Virus record (IMG/VR): IMGVR_UViG_3300047323_000675
DNA: 64,000 nucleotides
Origin: a virus
Direction: 5' to 3' (one strand)
The notes beneath the pieces were generated by a model. The model was not told the origin of the DNA. It was given only the letters and a program-made list of their open reading frames with translations, and made no database searches. Shown here in pieces: positions 54,119 through 57,879 of the stretch. The number at the start of each line of letters is the position of its first letter. Positions within the stretch are counted from its first letter, which is position 1. The position numbers and the translations under genes are program-made.

Positions 54119-54346
54119 TTAAACCATTTGTTCTGCTTTAGCAGTATTAATATTGTCAACATGTTTTTTTATCCATCTCATGAAAAGAATTGCTTTGTCA
54201 TCTGCTCCGAAAGAAGCATCCCCTGTGTCTGATATTGGAACTGGAAACTCAAATCCGCACTCAGTTTTGTACCATAATTCACTTTGTTGATAGCGAATAA
54301 ATTGAACTCTTTTCCCGTTGTTGACCATCTCTTTTATGCTGCTCAT
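54119..54346 (-). CDS. Small hypothetical protein, last cistron of the tRNA operon
   Basis: AAGGAG RBS; LWYKTECGFEFPVPISD...KAILFMRWIKKH; same strand, directly downstream of the array. Confidence 0.8.
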   Translation of the reverse strand: MSSIKEMVNNGKRVQFIRYQQSELWYKTECGFEFPVPISDTGDASFGADDKAILFMRWIKKHVDNINTAKAEQMV

Positions 54347-54420
54347 TATATTTCTCCTTTTATTTATAATAATGATTAATTGGTGGTAAATTAATTATAA
54401 GAAGCCACCACTTCTTATTC

Positions 54421-54495
54421 TGGCATCGCGTACGAGAATCGAACTCGTATCATTTGGTTGAAGGCCAAATATTCTCACCATTAAACTAACGCGAT
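54421..54495 (-). tRNA. tRNA-Glu(TTC), atypical C33
   Basis: Cloverleaf ATCGCGT/ACGCGAT, anticodon arm TTTGG-CCTTCAA-CCAAA, T-loop TTCGATT, encoded CCA. Confidence 0.85.
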
Positions 54496-54507
54496 ATTAA
54501 ATCTATT

Positions 54508-54601
54508 AAGAGTTTGCGGAGTCGAACCGCTTCTCTGCCTGCAAGCAGCGCATGAAGCCGACTAGTGATTGCAGTCACCAATACGCACATGCTGAACTCT
54601 T
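54508..54601 (-). ncRNA. Aberrant tRNA-like element (GCA/Cys-like loop, very long variable region, no CCA)
   Basis: Acceptor AAGAGTT/AACTCTT, T-arm GCGG-TTCGACT-CCGC, GGTGA-CTGCAA-TCACT arm, ~30-nt variable insert, weak D-arm. Confidence 0.55.
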
Positions 54602-54606
54602 TAACT

Positions 54607-54682
54607 TGGTGTCTCTAGAGGGATTTGAACCCTACATCTCCGGTGGGATTACGCGGCGATTTAACCATTAATCTATAGAGAC
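54607..54682 (-). tRNA. Glu-family tRNA body with scrambled anticodon arm (anticodon undetermined)
   Basis: Acceptor GTCTCTA/TAGAGAC + ACCA; D- and T-arms resemble the neighbouring Glu tRNAs; anticodon region CCG-CGTAATCCCAC-CGG is non-canonical. Confidence 0.7.
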
Positions 54683-54688
54683 AAAACT

Positions 54689-54772
54689 TGGTGGATGAGG
54701 TTGGATTTGAACCAACGAACCCGAAGGAAATGATTTACAGTCATCGCGCTTTAGCCACTTGCATACTCATCC
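54689..54772 (-). tRNA. tRNA-Tyr(GTA)
   Basis: G1-C72, A73, loop CTGTAAA, long variable arm, CCA; identical to 55943..56026. Confidence 0.95.
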
Positions 54773-54798
54773 ATTAAAACTATTTACTGATTAAATCT

Positions 54799-54876
54799 TG
54801 GTATCCAGTATGGGGGTTGAACCCATTTTCTCGGATTGAGAATCCGATTTCCTAACCTACCGTAGAAGAACTGGAT
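54799..54876 (-). tRNA. tRNA-Glu(CTC)
   Basis: Arm TCGGA-TTCTCAA-TCCGA; acceptor ATCCAGT/ACTGGAT; CCA. Confidence 0.9.
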
Positions 54877-54900
54877 ATAGAACTATTTACTGCATAATTT

Positions 54901-54985
54901 TGGTGGATCAGGTAGGATTCGAACCTACTCATCCGAAGAAACGGGGTTACAGCCCATCACACCTCTCCAACTGTGTCGCTGATCC
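54901..54985 (-). tRNA. tRNA-Tyr(GTA)
   Basis: Arm ATGGG-CTGTAAC-CCCGT; long variable arm; CCA. Confidence 0.92.
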
Positions 54986-55020
54986 AAATTTAAAAATTCT
55001 TTCAAAAAAATACTTAAATT

Positions 55021-55102
55021 TGGTGGATGAGGTAGGGATCGAACCTACTTGCCGAAGCCACGGAGTTACAGTCCGCTGCCCTACCATTAGAGCATCTCAT
55101 CC
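55021..55102 (-). tRNA. tRNA-Tyr(GTA)
   Basis: Arm GCGGA-CTGTAAC-TCCGT; variable arm GGCTTCGGC; CCA. Confidence 0.93.
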
Positions 55103-55107
55103 AAAAA

Positions 55108-55216
55108 TTAAGTGTATTTGCGTAGACGGAAAATCCGTTCTTCGGGATGGGTTAAGGCTCGTAGCCCCGATTCTGCAAATCCCCATTTACTAGCCAGGAG
55201 ATAAACTCACACTTAA
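55108..55216. ncRNA. Structured non-tRNA element inside the tRNA array
   Basis: Closed by TTAAGTGT/ACACTTAA; internal ATTTGC/GCAAAT, ACGGA/TCCGT and GGCT/AGCC helices; GC-rich in an AT-rich context. Confidence 0.55.
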
Positions 55217-55235
55217 AAACTTTACTACTACAATT

Positions 55236-55310
55236 TGGTATCGTGTATGGGATTCGAACCCATGTCCAAGGAGTGAAAGTCCAAGTATCCTTCCAGTAGA
55301 TGAACACGAT
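55236..55310 (-). tRNA. tRNA-Glu(TTC), weak anticodon stem
   Basis: GGA-CTTTCAC-TCC with two T.T mismatches below; acceptor ATCGTGT/ACACGAT; CCA. Confidence 0.85.
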
Positions 55311-55336
55311 ATAAAACTATTTTTATTACTTAAAAT

Positions 55337-55414
55337 TGGTGTCCCCAACGGGATTTGAACCCGTGTTTTCGGATTGAAAGTCCGACGATCTCGACCAAAC
55401 TAATCTATGAGGAC
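55337..55414 (-). tRNA. tRNA-Glu(TTC)
   Basis: TCGGA-CTTTCAA-TCCGA; CCA. Confidence 0.92.
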
Positions 55415-55440
55415 GATGAAACTTTTTACTACTTTTAAAC

Positions 55441-55525
55441 TGGTGGAGATGGATGGATTTGAACCACCGCGCCTTTTGGAAACTGATTTACAGTCAGTCG
55501 CATTCGACCCCTCTGCCACATCTCC
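55441..55525 (-). tRNA. tRNA-Tyr(GTA)
   Basis: ACTGA-CTGTAAA-TCAGT; long variable arm; CCA. Confidence 0.93.
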
Positions 55526-55548
55526 ATTAAAACTTTTACTACTTAATT

Positions 55549-55625
55549 TGGCACACCCAACGAGGATTGAACTCGTATTTTCGGATTGAAAGTCCGATGT
55601 TCTCGACCAATTAAACTATGGGTGT
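55549..55625 (-). tRNA. tRNA-Glu(TTC)
   Basis: TCGGA-CTTTCAA-TCCGA; acceptor ACACCCA/TGGGTGT; GCCA. Confidence 0.92.
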
Positions 55626-55647
55626 AAAACTTTTTACTACATTATAT

Positions 55648-55723
55648 TGGAGCACCTAACGGGGATCGAACCCGTATTTTCAGATTGAAAGTCTGACTAT
55701 CTAACCAATTAATATATAGGTGC
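55648..55723 (-). tRNA. tRNA-Glu(TTC)
   Basis: TCAGA-CTTTCAA-TCTGA; acceptor GCACCTA/TAGGTGC; TCCA. Confidence 0.92.
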
Positions 55724-55729
55724 TTTGTT

Positions 55730-55805
55730 TGGTATGGGTAACGGGATTTGAACCCGTGTCTGCGGATTGAAAGTCCGCTGATCTATCCAACTAATCTATA
55801 CCCAT
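55730..55805 (-). tRNA. tRNA-Glu(TTC)
   Basis: GCGGA-CTTTCAA-TCCGC; acceptor ATGGGTA/TACCCAT; ACCA. Confidence 0.92.
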
Positions 55806-55853
55806 GTAAATATTTACAAATTTAAAAACTCTTTATTTAAAAGTGTTTAAATT

Positions 55854-55937
55854 TGGCGTTCCGTGGGGGATTCGAACCCCAGTCTTTCGACATCACCTTG
55901 AAAGGGTGAGGACGGTTGCCGGCCGTCAACACGGAAC
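55854..55937 (-). tRNA. tRNA-Glu(TTC) with an unusual long variable arm
   Basis: TCACC-CTTTCAA-GGTGA; variable hairpin GTC-GAAA-GAC; 5-bp D-stem GACGG/CCGTC; GCCA. Confidence 0.85.
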
Positions 55938-55942
55938 ATATT

Positions 55943-56026
55943 TGGTGGATGAGGTTGGATTTGAACCAACGAACCCGAAGGAAATGATTTACAGTCATCG
56001 CGCTTTAGCCACTTGCATACTCATCC
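55943..56026 (-). tRNA. tRNA-Tyr(GTA)
   Basis: Exact duplicate of 54689..54772. Confidence 0.95.
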
Positions 56027-56053
56027 ATATTCACAACATTTACTACTTTAATT

Positions 56054-56139
56054 TGGTGGGGCAGGTAGGAATCGAACCTACAAGCCGTAAGGCGACCGCT
56101 TTACAGGCGGCTGATTTCACCACACTTACCATCTACCCC
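56054..56139 (-). tRNA. tRNA-Tyr(GTA), first tRNA of the operon
   Basis: GCCGC-CTGTAAA-GCGGT; long variable arm; ACCA. Confidence 0.93.
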
Positions 56140-56163: not shown

Positions 56164-56179
56164 AATTTTTAAAGAACAA
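56164..56179 (-). promoter_or_regulatory. boxA antitermination signal (rrn-type)
   Basis: TTGTTCTTTAAAAATT on the minus strand, 25 nt before the first tRNA; matches the TGCTCTTTAACA-type consensus. Confidence 0.8.
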
Positions 56180-56188
56180 TACTACTCA

Positions 56189-56207
56189 TGTTGTCGTTTT
56201 GACAACA
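56189..56207 (-). promoter_or_regulatory. boxB-like hairpin preceding boxA
   Basis: TGTTGTC-AAAAC-GACAACA perfect 7-bp stem. Confidence 0.6.
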
Positions 56208-56210
56208 CTA

Positions 56211-56246
56211 CAAAAACAAAAAAGGCACCAATTTCTCGGTGCCTTT
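56211..56246 (-). terminator. Attenuator terminator (segments 3:4) between the leader ORF and the tRNA array
   Basis: AAAGGCACC-GAGAAATT-GGTGCCTTT followed by TTTGTTTTTG. Confidence 0.9.
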
Positions 56247-56380
56247 GATTTACTTCTTACTTACTTGTCAGAGTGAACTCAGTTAATATAAACTTGGGTT
56301 TCCTTGTTTACATTAACCTTTGCATCAACACTATCTGAACGAGCAAAAGTAAATGCGACACCGTTGGTGTTCATTTCCTC
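56237..56380 (-). promoter_or_regulatory. Attenuator RNA switch: 1:2 protector and 2:3 antiterminator
   Basis: 1:2 = GAG-G-AAATG-A-ACACC / GGTGT-CG-CATTT-A-CTT. 2:3 = CGGTGTC/GGCACCG, ATTTACTT/AAGTAAAT and TTGCT/AGTAA; it uses the terminator 5' arm. Confidence 0.8.
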
Positions 56381-56413
56381 TCGTTCATAATAATAAGTGT
56401 TCATGCGGTTCAT
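56279..56413 (-). CDS. Tyr/Glu-sensing leader peptide (44 aa)
   Basis: MNRMNTYYYEREEMNTNGVAFTFARSDSVDAKVNVNKETQVYIN*; codons TAT TAT TAT GAA CGA GAG GAA; GAGAGA RBS; lies between promoter and terminator. Confidence 0.85.
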   Translation of the reverse strand: MNRMNTYYYEREEMNTNGVAFTFARSDSVDAKVNVNKETQVYIN

Positions 56414-56460: not shown

Positions 56461-56489
56461 ATTATGCCTCAGTTGCAATTCCGTGTCAA
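56461..56489 (-). promoter_or_regulatory. sigma70 promoter P2 of the leader/tRNA operon
   Basis: TTGACA-N17-CATAAT with an AT-rich upstream tract. Confidence 0.85.
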
Positions 56490-56568
56490 TAGGTTTCTTC
56501 AAAATATTTTTATTGTTTCAAAAAAACAACACATGACACTTGTTGCTCAACTGCATTCAATGAAGTGA

Positions 56569-56598
56569 ATTATATATTAAATTTCAATTAGGTGTCAA
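56569..56598 (-). promoter_or_regulatory. Candidate upstream sigma70 promoter P1
   Basis: TTGACA-N18-TATAAT about 110 bp upstream of P2. Confidence 0.6.
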
Positions 56599-56994: not shown

Positions 56995-57879
56995 ATGAAA
57001 ATCAAAGAAATATTAACCTCAGCAGAAGATAAGTCTGTGAACTTTATCTATGACAATTGGATAGAGGCTAGATTTGTAAGAAGAGAAGCTGATTACTTCA
57101 TTATTTATCTTTCATCGCATGATGGTTGTAATAAGGCATGTCGTTTCTGCCATTTAACTCAAACAAAACAAACTTCTTTCAATCGGGTAACAATAGAAGA
57201 ATATCTAATGCAAGCTGAAGATGTCTTGAATTACTACGACTCAATTAAAAATAACCAAGGTGCTGCAAAAAGGGTTAACTTTAATTTTATGGCTAGAGGA
57301 GAAGCCCTAGCTAACCAAGTTATTTTGGAGAATGCTAAAGAATTATTTTCTAGTTTGGAAAATTTAGCATTAAAAAGAGGTTTAAGTGCAAGATTTAATA
57401 TTTCAACAATTATGCCAATGGAAATAGAATCAAAAGATTTGGCTGATATTTTCAAGGATGTTACTCAAGATTATGGGATTTATTATTCACTATATAGTGT
57501 CGATGATAAATTTAGGAAGCGCTGGCTACCGAAAGCTTTAAATTATGAAGTAGCACTAAAAAAATTAGAAGAATTACAGCTAAAAAGAGGAGCAGATATT
57601 GCCTTCCATTGGGCATTTATTGAAGGTGAAAATGATAGTAAAGAAGATTTAGATGAATTAAAGAATGTCTTGTCTAATTACAACATTAAGGCCAAGTATA
57701 ATTTAGTAAGATATAATCCCTATAGTTCCAATCAAGGGAAAGAACCAACAGAGGATGTTTTGCAGTATAATTTTAATGAATTAAATGAATTTTTTAAAAG
57801 TCCTGCATCTAGAATTGTTCCTCGTGTTGGATTTGATGTTAAAGCCTCATGTGGGATGTTTGTAATCAATAATAATTGA
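56995..57879 (+). CDS. RlmN/Cfr-like radical SAM enzyme (divergent, lacks the resolving Cys)
   Basis: LSSHDGCNKACRFC, FMARGEAL (cf. MGMGEPL), IEGEND, NLVRYNP, C-terminal ASCG; Tyr at the RlmN C118-equivalent position. Confidence 0.8.
   Translation: MKIKEILTSAEDKSVNFIYDNWIEARFVRREADYFIIYLSSHDGCNKACRFCHLTQTKQTSFNRVTIEEYLMQAEDVLNYYDSIKNNQGAAKRVNFNFMARGEALANQVILENAKELFSSLENLALKRGLSARFNISTIMPMEIESKDLADIFKDVTQDYGIYYSLYSVDDKFRKRWLPKALNYEVALKKLEELQLKRGADIAFHWAFIEGENDSKEDLDELKNVLSNYNIKAKYNLVRYNPYSSNQGKEPTEDVLQYNFNELNEFFKSPASRIVPRVGFDVKASCGMFVINNN

Follow-up and report, generated by a model that had tools for sequence, protein, structure and literature searches.

A densely packed array of divergent Tyr and Glu tRNA genes behind a predicted Tyr/Glu-codon attenuator on a giant low-GC replicon

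Introduction

It has long been asked why the DNA of phages and giant plasmids includes tRNA genes, and the currently favored answer, escape from tRNA-cleaving immunity, rests on a few examples that each involve a single tRNA. Here we describe a locus in a stretch of 64,000 nucleotides (nt) of DNA (IMG/VR virus record IMGVR_UViG_3300047323_000675; the whole stretch is hereafter called the window), the minus strand of which carries an array of tRNA genes for only two amino acids, Tyr and Glu. The array lies behind a short leader open reading frame (ORF) with a run of Tyr and Glu codons and a predicted transcription attenuator.

The closest published parallel is pMEGA, a group of low-GC megaplasmids of Enterobacteriaceae with ankyrin-type paralogues, which encode as many as 208 tRNAs; the genes are grouped in blocks, in many cases by amino acid, and the authors read these blocks of tRNAs with divergent bodies as protection from host tRNA nucleases (bioRxiv 10.1101/2025.09.30.679422). 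The two systems share a very low-GC giant replicon, massed ankyrin or other solenoid paralogues without ribosomal genes nearby, and tight tRNA blocks of one amino acid or a few alternating types, in which genes with the same anticodon have very divergent bodies. However, no sequence relationship was found in PLSDB or the E. coli genomes, and the likeness rests on the low GC content, the ankyrin/DUF285 arrays and the tRNA blocks. In addition, our source is rhizosphere or soil, the replicon measures ~2.2 Mb, and the block lies behind a predicted codon-matched attenuator, whereas the words 'leader' and 'promoter' are absent from the text of the preprint.

Phages also use extra tRNAs on accessory DNA for counter-defence (PMC10264068; PMC11555353; PARIS AriB, PMC12409363). 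Phage tRNAs bear anticodon-loop changes at the sites cut by tRNA-cleaving nucleases (tRNases) (PMC10264068), and the tRNA-Tyr of phage T5 rescues the infection from retron-Eco7 PtuAB, which depletes tRNA-Tyr (PMC11555353). Our locus has in common with these cases the carriage on accessory DNA, the differences in the anticodon loop, and tRNA-Tyr as a documented target. In contrast, phages carry one, rarely two or three, copies per anticodon, whereas a full array here holds 6-7 Tyr and 8-11 Glu genes. The T5 tRNA-Tyr is transcribed from a strong constitutive promoter, whereas the operon described here is predicted to be off until decoding fails, and for our locus no cognate nuclease is known.

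The tRNA array units of bacteria and mycobacteriophages (PMC4758250; PMC5966550) resemble the locus in their high tRNA density, their horizontal origin, and the rearrangement, deletion and duplication observed between relatives. They differ in that they cover many or all isotypes, with redundancy of the core isoacceptors, and Tyr is among their rarest specificities (~2%). An array unit is defined by at least 20 genes at a density of at least two per kb (PMC4758250); our array exceeds this density but falls short of the count, with 15 genes here and 15-17 per array.

The leader region has its nearest counterparts in the trpL, hisL, pheL and ilvGMEDA leaders, with which it shares a promoter, a ribosome-binding site, a short ORF with control codons, alternative protector, antiterminator and terminator structures, and control codons cognate to the products of the operon. 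However, the genes to be regulated here are tRNAs instead of biosynthetic enzymes, the ORF is 44 codons long, and the antiterminator spans ~110 nt. A full-text literature search found no published tRNA operon under leader-peptide control. The idea of tRNase escape is already published for phages and megaplasmids; new here are the strict two-isotype content, which persists although genes are replaced, the extreme number of copies for each anticodon, the predicted codon-matched attenuator, and conserved non-tRNA RNAs inside the array.

Results

The array encodes tRNAs for only two amino acids

ARAGORN recovered the 14 tRNA genes of the original prediction at 54421-56139, all of them on the minus strand, namely six Tyr-GUA, seven Glu-UUC and one Glu-CUC, and called no further tRNA gene elsewhere in the window. 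A fifteenth tRNA, with a disrupted anticodon arm, was called by Rfam at 54682-54607. The array accordingly comprises 15 tRNA genes in 1.72 kb (~9 per kb) plus two non-tRNA RNAs, termed X and Z. Thus, it does not consist of tRNAs alone, and the restriction to Tyr and Glu is true of every gene with a readable anticodon. The gathering threshold of the Rfam tRNA model RF00005 (29 bits) was passed by 12 of the 14 genes and by the odd tRNA; the two genes below the threshold were 54876-54799 (25.6 bits) and 55937-55854 (no match).

Each cloverleaf was drawn with ARAGORN, and each gene was cut into its arms. Pairwise identities in the window ranged from 59 to 74% among the Tyr genes and from 47 to 78% among the Glu genes, which is as low as between unrelated tRNAs. 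The genes had been described as more than simple copies, and this was borne out, although one Tyr gene is present as an exact pair. The parsing also reproduced the reported variation, with five distinct anticodon stems and two loop types (A or C at position 38) in the Tyr genes, and four loop types, a 1-72 pair of either A-U or G-C, and a discriminator base of A, G or U in the Glu genes. As had also been proposed, G1-C72, A73 and a long variable arm are present in all Tyr genes of the window (6/6). The same three elements and the GUA anticodon, the hallmarks of bacterial type-II tRNA-Tyr, were found in 22 of the 22 distinct Tyr sequences of the related loci described below.

The Glu genes are less uniform at the acceptor end. 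In the window, the 1-72 pair is A-U in five and G-C in three, and base 73 is A in four, G in three and U in one. The enterobacterial identity set of tRNA-Glu for the E. coli glutamyl-tRNA synthetase (GluRS) consists of G1-C72, U2-A71, G73 and the UUC anticodon. U2-A71 is common (29 of 33 distinct Glu genes), but G1-C72 and G73 are combined in only one of the eight window genes, 55937-55854, so that the window genes depart from the enterobacterial type.

The two-isotype content is kept while the genes are replaced

Six homologues of the leader peptide were found, all of which contain the YYYEREE run. Their metagenomic contigs provided four further arrays, L001 (equivalent to L004), L005 (equivalent to L006), L007 and L010, and two partial loci, L008 and L009. 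In the related loci (five arrays and one partial contig), 63 of 63 standard tRNA calls were Tyr-GUA, Glu-UUC or Glu-CUC, and the sole other calls were three copies of the odd tRNA with the broken anticodon arm. Therefore, chance is excluded as the source of the two-isotype content. The size of the array ranges from 8 to ~17 genes across the loci, and the full arrays hold 6-7 Tyr and 8-11 Glu genes.

Between the relatives, the flanks are collinear, the interiors are rearranged, and the gene sets are shuffled or replaced. Compared with L010, the closest relative, the flanks are ~90% identical and five consecutive genes (55937-55425) are swapped for genes that are unrelated but again specific for Glu and Tyr. 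When the 66 parsed genes were grouped at 82% identity, 27 families resulted, 12 of which are singletons; the set comprises 59 Tyr and Glu genes in families and three copies of the odd tRNA, and the others are singletons. Beyond these loci, the leader had no match in the viral contigs (exact and degenerate DNA scan) or the GTDB genomes, the only match in a metagenome DNA scan was a second copy of the L001 strain, and neither the array nor the gene that follows it, encoding a protein of 75 amino acids (aa), had a relative in PLSDB or the complete E. coli genomes.

The copies retain the tRNA fold

The five arrays yielded 22 distinct Tyr and 33 distinct Glu sequences. In the Tyr genes, pairing was complete in the acceptor stem (154/154, 100%) and nearly so in the anticodon stem (109/110) and the T stem (109/110, 99%). 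The Glu genes showed 230/231 pairs (99.6%) in the acceptor stem, 150/165 (91%) in the anticodon stem and 163/165 (99%) in the T stem, the shortfall in the anticodon stem being due to a single family in which two U.U pairs are conserved. In both sets, 3-5 types of pair occur at each stem position, and the stems have been kept 91-100% paired via compensatory changes, indicating selection for the fold; therefore, the copies are working genes and not decaying duplicates. Among 59 Tyr and Glu genes in 14 families, the sole anticodon position that varies is the wobble base that distinguishes UUC from CUC, and the encoded CCA is retained along with the anticodons.

Within the families, the variable fraction was highest at base 73 (0.29) and at the loop positions outside the anticodon (0.23), followed by the D arm (0.18), the anticodon stem (0.17), the acceptor stem (0.14), the variable region (0.11), the T loop (0.09), the T stem (0.03) and the anticodon (0.02). 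The variation is located where tRNases and modification enzymes read the tRNA, at positions 32, 33, 37 and 38, in the anticodon stem, and at base 73. In the seven-member Tyr family to which the gene 55102-55021 belongs, six positions vary: 31, 38, 39 and 40 in the anticodon arm, and two in the D stem. C38 occurs in 9 of the 22 distinct Tyr genes, which therefore lack the A36-A37-A38 motif recognized by MiaA (PMC13434334), and this loss could be relevant to nucleases that read modified loops. The 33 distinct Glu genes include five with C33 and three with G37; at the acceptor end, 23 of them carry A73, seven G73 and three U73, and 19 have an A-U and 14 a G-C pair at 1-72.

In collinear segments, the identity between strains was 96% for X and Z, 84% for the tRNA genes and 81% for the spacers. 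tRNA genes that diverge about as fast as their spacers and yet form perfect cloverleaves are unusual, and the pattern fits a turnover that is tolerated or favored.

The leader has the layout of an attenuator

Upstream of the first tRNA gene, in the same orientation, all seven leader versions (7/7) have the layout of an attenuator: a promoter is followed by a short ORF that includes a run of control codons, and an intrinsic terminator separates this ORF from the tRNAs. The hexamers of the promoter P2 are invariant in the seven versions and the bases between them vary. The leader ORF is 37-44 codons long, and its first ~30 codons are near-invariant even at synonymous sites, while the 5' untranslated region (UTR) and the tail of the peptide diverge. 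Its YYYEREE run is the sole heptad with at least three Tyr and at least three Glu among the 44,315 heptads of the six frames of the window. The control codons are thus those of Tyr and Glu, which fits a response to the loss of exactly these two tRNAs.

The predicted structures overlap with the control codons. The protector hairpin consists of outer arms at 56386-56380 and 56343-56337 and inner arms at 56370-56366 and 56362-56358, and its outer 5' arm is made of the Glu-Arg-Glu codons themselves. The 3' half of the protector provides the antiterminator strand (56363-56349), of which the ORF-internal part 56363-56357 is predicted to pair with the 5' arm of the terminator, and 56354-56349 with 56253-56247. 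The terminator arms covary across the relatives; for example, both arms are altered together in L009. A conserved stretch of 80 nt separates the terminator from the first tRNA. Its segment 56166-56205, which shows 97-100% conservation in all relatives but one, holds a hairpin and a putative boxA-like word, which may point to an antitermination of the long untranslated transcript in the style of rRNA operons.

To model the switch, the nascent transcript was folded after being cut before the 3' arm of the terminator, and a stalled ribosome was represented by masking bases. In the unstalled nascent transcript, the 5' arm of the terminator was free in all seven versions. When all of the bases 5' of a ribosome at Tyr-9, Glu-12 or Glu-13 were masked, the ORF-internal strand captured the terminator 5' arm, again in 7/7 versions. 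With the masking of the ribosome footprint only, the switch was predicted in six of the seven versions; in four it was predicted only for stalls at codons 7-13, and in L008 and L009 for a wider range of stalls. The original prediction had set against its own reading the alternative of similar unregulated tRNA clusters sorted by amino acid, and the attenuator, as modelled here, contradicts the term 'unregulated'.

Between the promoter-like site P1 and P2, at 56520-56569 on the minus strand, a short conserved segment ends in a hairpin and a U-run. This segment may be a small RNA or a second terminator.

Unusual members and conserved non-tRNA elements of the array

In the odd tRNA (54682-54607), the acceptor, D and T arms are normal and the CCA is encoded, but no more than three base pairs (bp) make up the anticodon arm and U33 is absent. 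Several other non-canonical members were missed by ARAGORN and are conserved between strains, such as a Glu gene with an abnormal T loop, which is identical in three strains.

The gene 55937-55854 is drawn by ARAGORN with an 8-bp acceptor stem and a 4-bp T stem (8/4), and the minimum free energy (MFE) fold (-33.7 kcal/mol) gave the same structure. None of the four other arrays has a counterpart, the gene being peculiar to this strain, and an exact and degenerate DNA scan of the viral contigs was without match. This gene alone shares a 12-bp acceptor branch split 8/4, a long variable arm and G73 with the allo-tRNAs, whose acceptor branches are 8/4 or 9/3 and in which base 73 of the 8/4 type is G or U (PMC5389517). 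The allo-tRNAs differ in having a long tRNA-Sec-like D stem with a tetraloop, whereas the D stem here is 5 bp with a 7-nt loop; the UUC anticodon and the placement inside a Tyr/Glu array also set it apart from them. If the seryl-tRNA synthetase (SerRS) charged this tRNA, Ser would be inserted at GAA and GAG codons.

Element X is present in four arrays, each time immediately before one and the same Tyr family, and its consensus is predicted to fold into three hairpins. Element Z is present in all five arrays, immediately before the last Glu gene. Along with an acceptor-like stem and a canonical T arm, its consensus fold (-34.7 kcal/mol) shows a short arm and a long one that bears a loop of 6 nt, but the D arm and CCA are absent; the closing stem and the T stem covary. 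Neither X nor Z matched an Rfam family at E <= 1.

A conserved AT-rich spacer motif of ~25 nt lies between most of the tRNAs (for example, 55526-55548, 55415-55440 and 56027-56053 on the minus strand) and also before the first tRNA. A second type of spacer, palindromic and ~36 nt long, recurs at fixed places. The spacer motifs could be processing signals or recombination sites. The positions of all of these features are listed in Table 1.

Table 1 Features of the locus and its flanks, in the order of transcription of the array, followed by the neighboring plus-strand gene.
Feature	Position	Strand	Basis and remarks
Promoter-like site P1, 12/12 consensus matches	56569-56598	-	Promoter scan; hexamers kept in 4/6 relatives, absent in L008 and L009
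Promoter P2 (TTGACA, 17 nt, CATAAT) before the leader	56461-56489	-	Promoter scan
Leader ORF, 44 codons; codons 7-13 (56395-56375) are YYYEREE	56279-56413	-	ORF translation
Protector hairpin inside the leader ORF	56337-56386	-	Full-leader MFE fold
Intrinsic terminator, 11-bp stem and U-run	56221-56246	-	Terminator scan
Post-terminator leader: hairpin 56205-56191 and boxA-like word 56178-56166	56166-56205	-	Leader alignment
tRNA-Tyr GUA, A38	56054-56139	-	Identical in L010; two differences in L001
tRNA-Tyr GUA, A38	55943-56026	-	Exact second copy at 54772-54689
84-nt tRNA, UUC anticodon, 8-bp acceptor stem, 4-bp T stem, long variable arm, G73	55854-55937	-	ARAGORN, MFE fold
tRNA-Glu UUC, A1-U72, A73	55730-55805	-	Rfam 72.1 bits
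tRNA-Glu UUC, G1-C72, U73	55648-55723	-	ARAGORN
tRNA-Glu UUC, A1-U72, G73	55549-55625	-	ARAGORN
tRNA-Tyr GUA, A38	55441-55525	-	L001 counterpart has C38 and an altered 31-39 pair
tRNA-Glu UUC, G1-C72, A73	55337-55414	-	ARAGORN
tRNA-Glu UUC, C38, two conserved U.U anticodon-stem mismatches	55236-55310	-	8-member family, in all five arrays
Element X, ~101-nt structured non-tRNA RNA	55112-55212	-	Comparison of arrays, consensus fold
tRNA-Tyr GUA, C38, short D loop	55021-55102	-	7-member family
tRNA-Tyr GUA, C38	54901-54985	-	ARAGORN
tRNA-Glu CUC, U32, large D loop	54799-54876	-	Rfam 25.6 bits; identical in L005 and L010
tRNA-Tyr GUA, exact copy of 56026-55943	54689-54772	-	ARAGORN
Odd tRNA	54607-54682	-	Rfam 46.2 bits; ARAGORN relaxed mode; conserved in L007 and L010
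Element Z, ~95-nt tRNA-like four-way junction	54508-54602	-	Comparison of arrays, consensus fold
tRNA-Glu UUC, A1-U72, G73, C33 replacing U33	54421-54495	-	ARAGORN
Weak hairpin 3' of the last tRNA	54399-54416	-	Read from the sequence; conserved in relatives; missed by the terminator scan
75-aa gene, PHROG 20427	54119-54346	-	Own ribosome-binding site; follows the array in every complete relative
Radical SAM gene, Cfr/RlmN family, short (294 aa)	56995-57879	+	Nearest phage relatives in jumbo phages

Neighboring genes and the replicon

The 75-aa protein encoded downstream of the array is highly conserved, with 221 homologues, and PHROG 20427 has no function assigned to it. Its homologues lie inside tRNA-rich regions of large phages; one in phage GAP32 lies 20 nt after a tRNA, and those in L093 and L095 lie among 11 and 15 tRNAs, respectively. 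Among 80 IMG/VR loci of this gene, 58 had tRNAs within 3 kb, and in 26 of 63 a tRNA was located at most 100 nt upstream. The AlphaFold model (pLDDT 74), composed of three strands and a long helix, had no significant PDB match by Foldseek or profile search.

In the tRNA regions of the large phages (L093 1-2600; L096-L175), genes with the same anticodon are often adjacent or in alternating pairs (Glu-Glu, Asp-Asp, Phe-Gln-Phe-Gln) at ~61% identity. Phage tRNA clusters in general therefore seem to contain divergent duplicates.

The radical SAM gene on the opposite strand was considered as a dedicated tRNA modifier and rejected. Three genes separate it from the array in L001, it is absent within 10 kb in L005 and L007, and there are no tRNAs in the vicinity of its closest relatives, which are those of L002 and L003. 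The linkage to the array is not conserved, and therefore we treat the gene as an incidental neighbor.

Outside the array, the GC content of the window is 24-34%. The window is dominated by DUF285, ankyrin and DUF4116 paralogues, and also encodes luxI/luxR, trxB, two R2K ATP-grasp genes and a C39 peptidase. The two R2K matches came from a Pfam census of 78 ORFs, and we take this clade to include RimK-like peptide ligases; enzymes of the wider ATP-grasp group add Glu or Tyr to proteins. In the protein collection, the leader peptide of the window is located on a contig of 2,230,803 bp and a homologue on one of 2,217,227 bp; the replicon is therefore chromosome-sized and not a phage. The TrxB of the window is at most 64% identical to TrxB of beta- and gammaproteobacteria, and no low-GC relative of it was found. 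An alternative genetic code is not indicated, as the long ORFs are intact under table 11.

Discussion

We propose that the minus strand from 56489 to ~54399 is a single attenuator-gated operon of spare, varied Tyr and Glu tRNAs, which would be induced when those tRNAs are damaged, and we regard this proposal as having an even chance of being right. That the genes are functional and gated by the decoding of Tyr and Glu codons is, in our judgement, quite probable, and the purpose of the operon is plausibly the escape from tRNA-targeting enzymes, a view that we hold at slightly below even confidence. In the proposed mechanism, transcription from P2 would normally end at the terminator (56246-56221). 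When charged Tyr- or Glu-tRNA runs short, the ribosome would stall on YYYEREE, the protector hairpin would be unable to form, and its freed 3' half would pair with the 5' arm of the terminator, allowing RNA polymerase to read into the array. Since an extra tRNA is useful only when the tRNA, and not the amino acid, is limiting, the trigger is most likely damage to the tRNAs. The likeliest agents would be a nuclease that acts on the anticodon or on the acceptor end, or else a toxin that modifies the tRNA, and they might come from a host defence system, a competitor, or the conflict systems of the element itself. A panel with differences at positions 32, 33, 37 and 38, within the anticodon stem and the D arm, at the 1-72 pair and at base 73 would improve the chance that some of its members escape. 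A precedent at base 73 is CdiA-CT NC101, which cuts G73 tRNAs including tRNA-Glu, and from which a change of G73 to A protects (PMC5737660).

Several observations weigh against this proposal. The changes within families are enriched in the anticodon arm, but the enrichment is modest (odds ratio 1.67, p = 0.02, uncorrected for shared ancestry), and we regard it as suggestive only. Some members may be poor tRNAs, such as those with C33 or with U.U pairs, the 8/4 gene and also the odd tRNA. In the leader of the window itself, the two states are nearly equal in energy, a competing fold with long-range pairing to the 5' UTR being favored over the antiterminator by 0.8-1.3 kcal/mol, and the full-length equilibrium fold always keeps the terminator, even when its 5' parts are masked. 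The terminator thus wins at equilibrium, and the switch would therefore depend on co-transcriptional kinetics, as in classical attenuators. In addition, 31 codons of the leader ORF follow the control run, and classical attenuators have shorter ones. As for the attacker, we know of no nuclease that targets Tyr and Glu tRNAs together, and a literature search returned none that hits both. A PADLOC scan of the window detected no known tRNase or defence family, and no tRNA ligase was found in the window either. The original prediction of a bet-hedging panel against anticodon nucleases consequently stands in part: the variants are functional and maintained, with stems 91-100% paired and fixed anticodons, but the window offers no known tRNase as their counterpart.

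A further point against our proposal comes from the large phages and leads to the alternative of neutral accumulation, in which the array would be a dumping ground for phage-type tRNAs that arrive by duplication, recombination at the spacer motifs and import. The differences between the copies would then reflect age or foreign origin and no selection for being different, and the operon would just raise the dosage of Tyr and Glu tRNAs. In the 80 unrelated large-phage loci of IMG/VR, the median identity of same-anticodon pairs is 61%, so that the copies there are equally divergent, and the phage Tyr and Glu tRNAs carry the same variants, including C38, C33, A1-U72, a discriminator of A, G or U, and CUC isoacceptors. 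The diversity alone is thus not evidence of local diversifying selection, and the array may draw on a general pool of mobile-element tRNAs, with much of its diversity inherited instead of generated here. The spacer motif conserved between most genes, read as recombination sites, the 12 singletons among the 27 families and the one exact duplicate also agree with neutral accumulation. What is distinctive here is the concentration: no anticodon has more than three copies in the large phages, whereas a full array contains 6-7 genes for Tyr and 8-11 for Glu. Moreover, import without selection leaves unexplained that the two-isotype content has been kept through repeated replacement in five strains and that the leader is written in the same two amino acids, and it sits poorly with stems that are still 91-100% paired and with changes in close families that cluster in the anticodon arm. 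We therefore regard neutral accumulation as unlikely. The array could also be an insurance of host range, if the replicon or a mobile island meets hosts with differing GluRS, tyrosyl-tRNA synthetase (TyrRS) and modification enzymes, such that some members are always charged and modified. The Glu genes do vary at the acceptor-end positions read by the synthetase (1-72 and base 73), several types of D arm occur, one of them E. coli-like, and both neighboring genes have relatives in large phages. However, the 22 distinct Tyr genes all keep G1-C72, A73 and the long arm and are diverse elsewhere all the same, so that their variation spares the tracked identity elements; much of the variation within families lies in the anticodon loop and stem; and the five strains are closely related and yet hold different sets. 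The suggestion in the original prediction that the panel answers to differing host synthetases does not suit Tyr, with its invariant identity elements, but may apply to Glu. Overall, we assign host-range insurance a low probability.

Codon compensation is the classical explanation of phage tRNAs, and an AT-rich replicon might need extra decoding capacity, as the strong preference for GAA over GAG (1140 vs 220) and TAT over TAC (671 vs 101) could indicate. However, Glu (7.5%, rank 5th) and Tyr (4.25%, rank 12th) are exceeded in use by Lys (10.4%), Asn (8.5%), Ile (8.2%) and Leu (8.2%), and the window holds no tRNA for any of these four; the usage ranks show that amino-acid demand does not explain the choice of Tyr and Glu. 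In addition, one anticodon suffices for both codons of each pair, a supply function calls for copies but not for divergent ones, and an attenuator that is off by default is at odds with a constitutive demand, all of which makes a role in codon or amino-acid supply very improbable. The remaining alternative is a use outside translation, either of Tyr- and Glu-tRNA in aminoacyl-tRNA-dependent chemistry or of the RNAs as decoys or sponges. It could draw on the fact that X, Z and the odd tRNA are the best-conserved parts of the array and that several members have atypical loops. Nevertheless, the Pfam census recognized no aminoacyl-tRNA-dependent enzyme among the 78 window proteins, the strict conservation of the anticodons matters only for decoding or for proteins that read the anticodon, and the leader is predicted to sense decoding; we give such a use only the faintest chance.

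A bolder form of our attenuator-gated operon is a self-sensing tRNA immune reserve, in which the stalling of ribosomes on a Tyr/Glu test peptide would register the loss of precisely these two tRNAs and open the transcription of a fast-turnover library of nuclease-resistant replacements. We offer this version tentatively and consider it somewhat doubtful. Within it, X, Z and the gene of the 75-aa protein would be transcribed together with the library, and the two RNAs and the protein may be decoys, inhibitors, or repair or processing factors. If it is true, the strict two-isotype rule would imply an undiscovered tRNase, or a pair of tRNases, directed at tRNA-Tyr and tRNA-Glu in soil proteobacteria.

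For the question of why mobile elements carry tRNAs, the locus is an unusually clean natural test case, with two specificities and many intact variants side by side. The five strain versions reveal which parts are constant and which are replaced, and the predicted built-in sensor would indicate the stimulus of the operon. The locus also points to an undescribed Tyr/Glu-directed tRNase. If the gate works as predicted, it would extend trp-type attenuation from the sensing of amino acids to the sensing of tRNA integrity.

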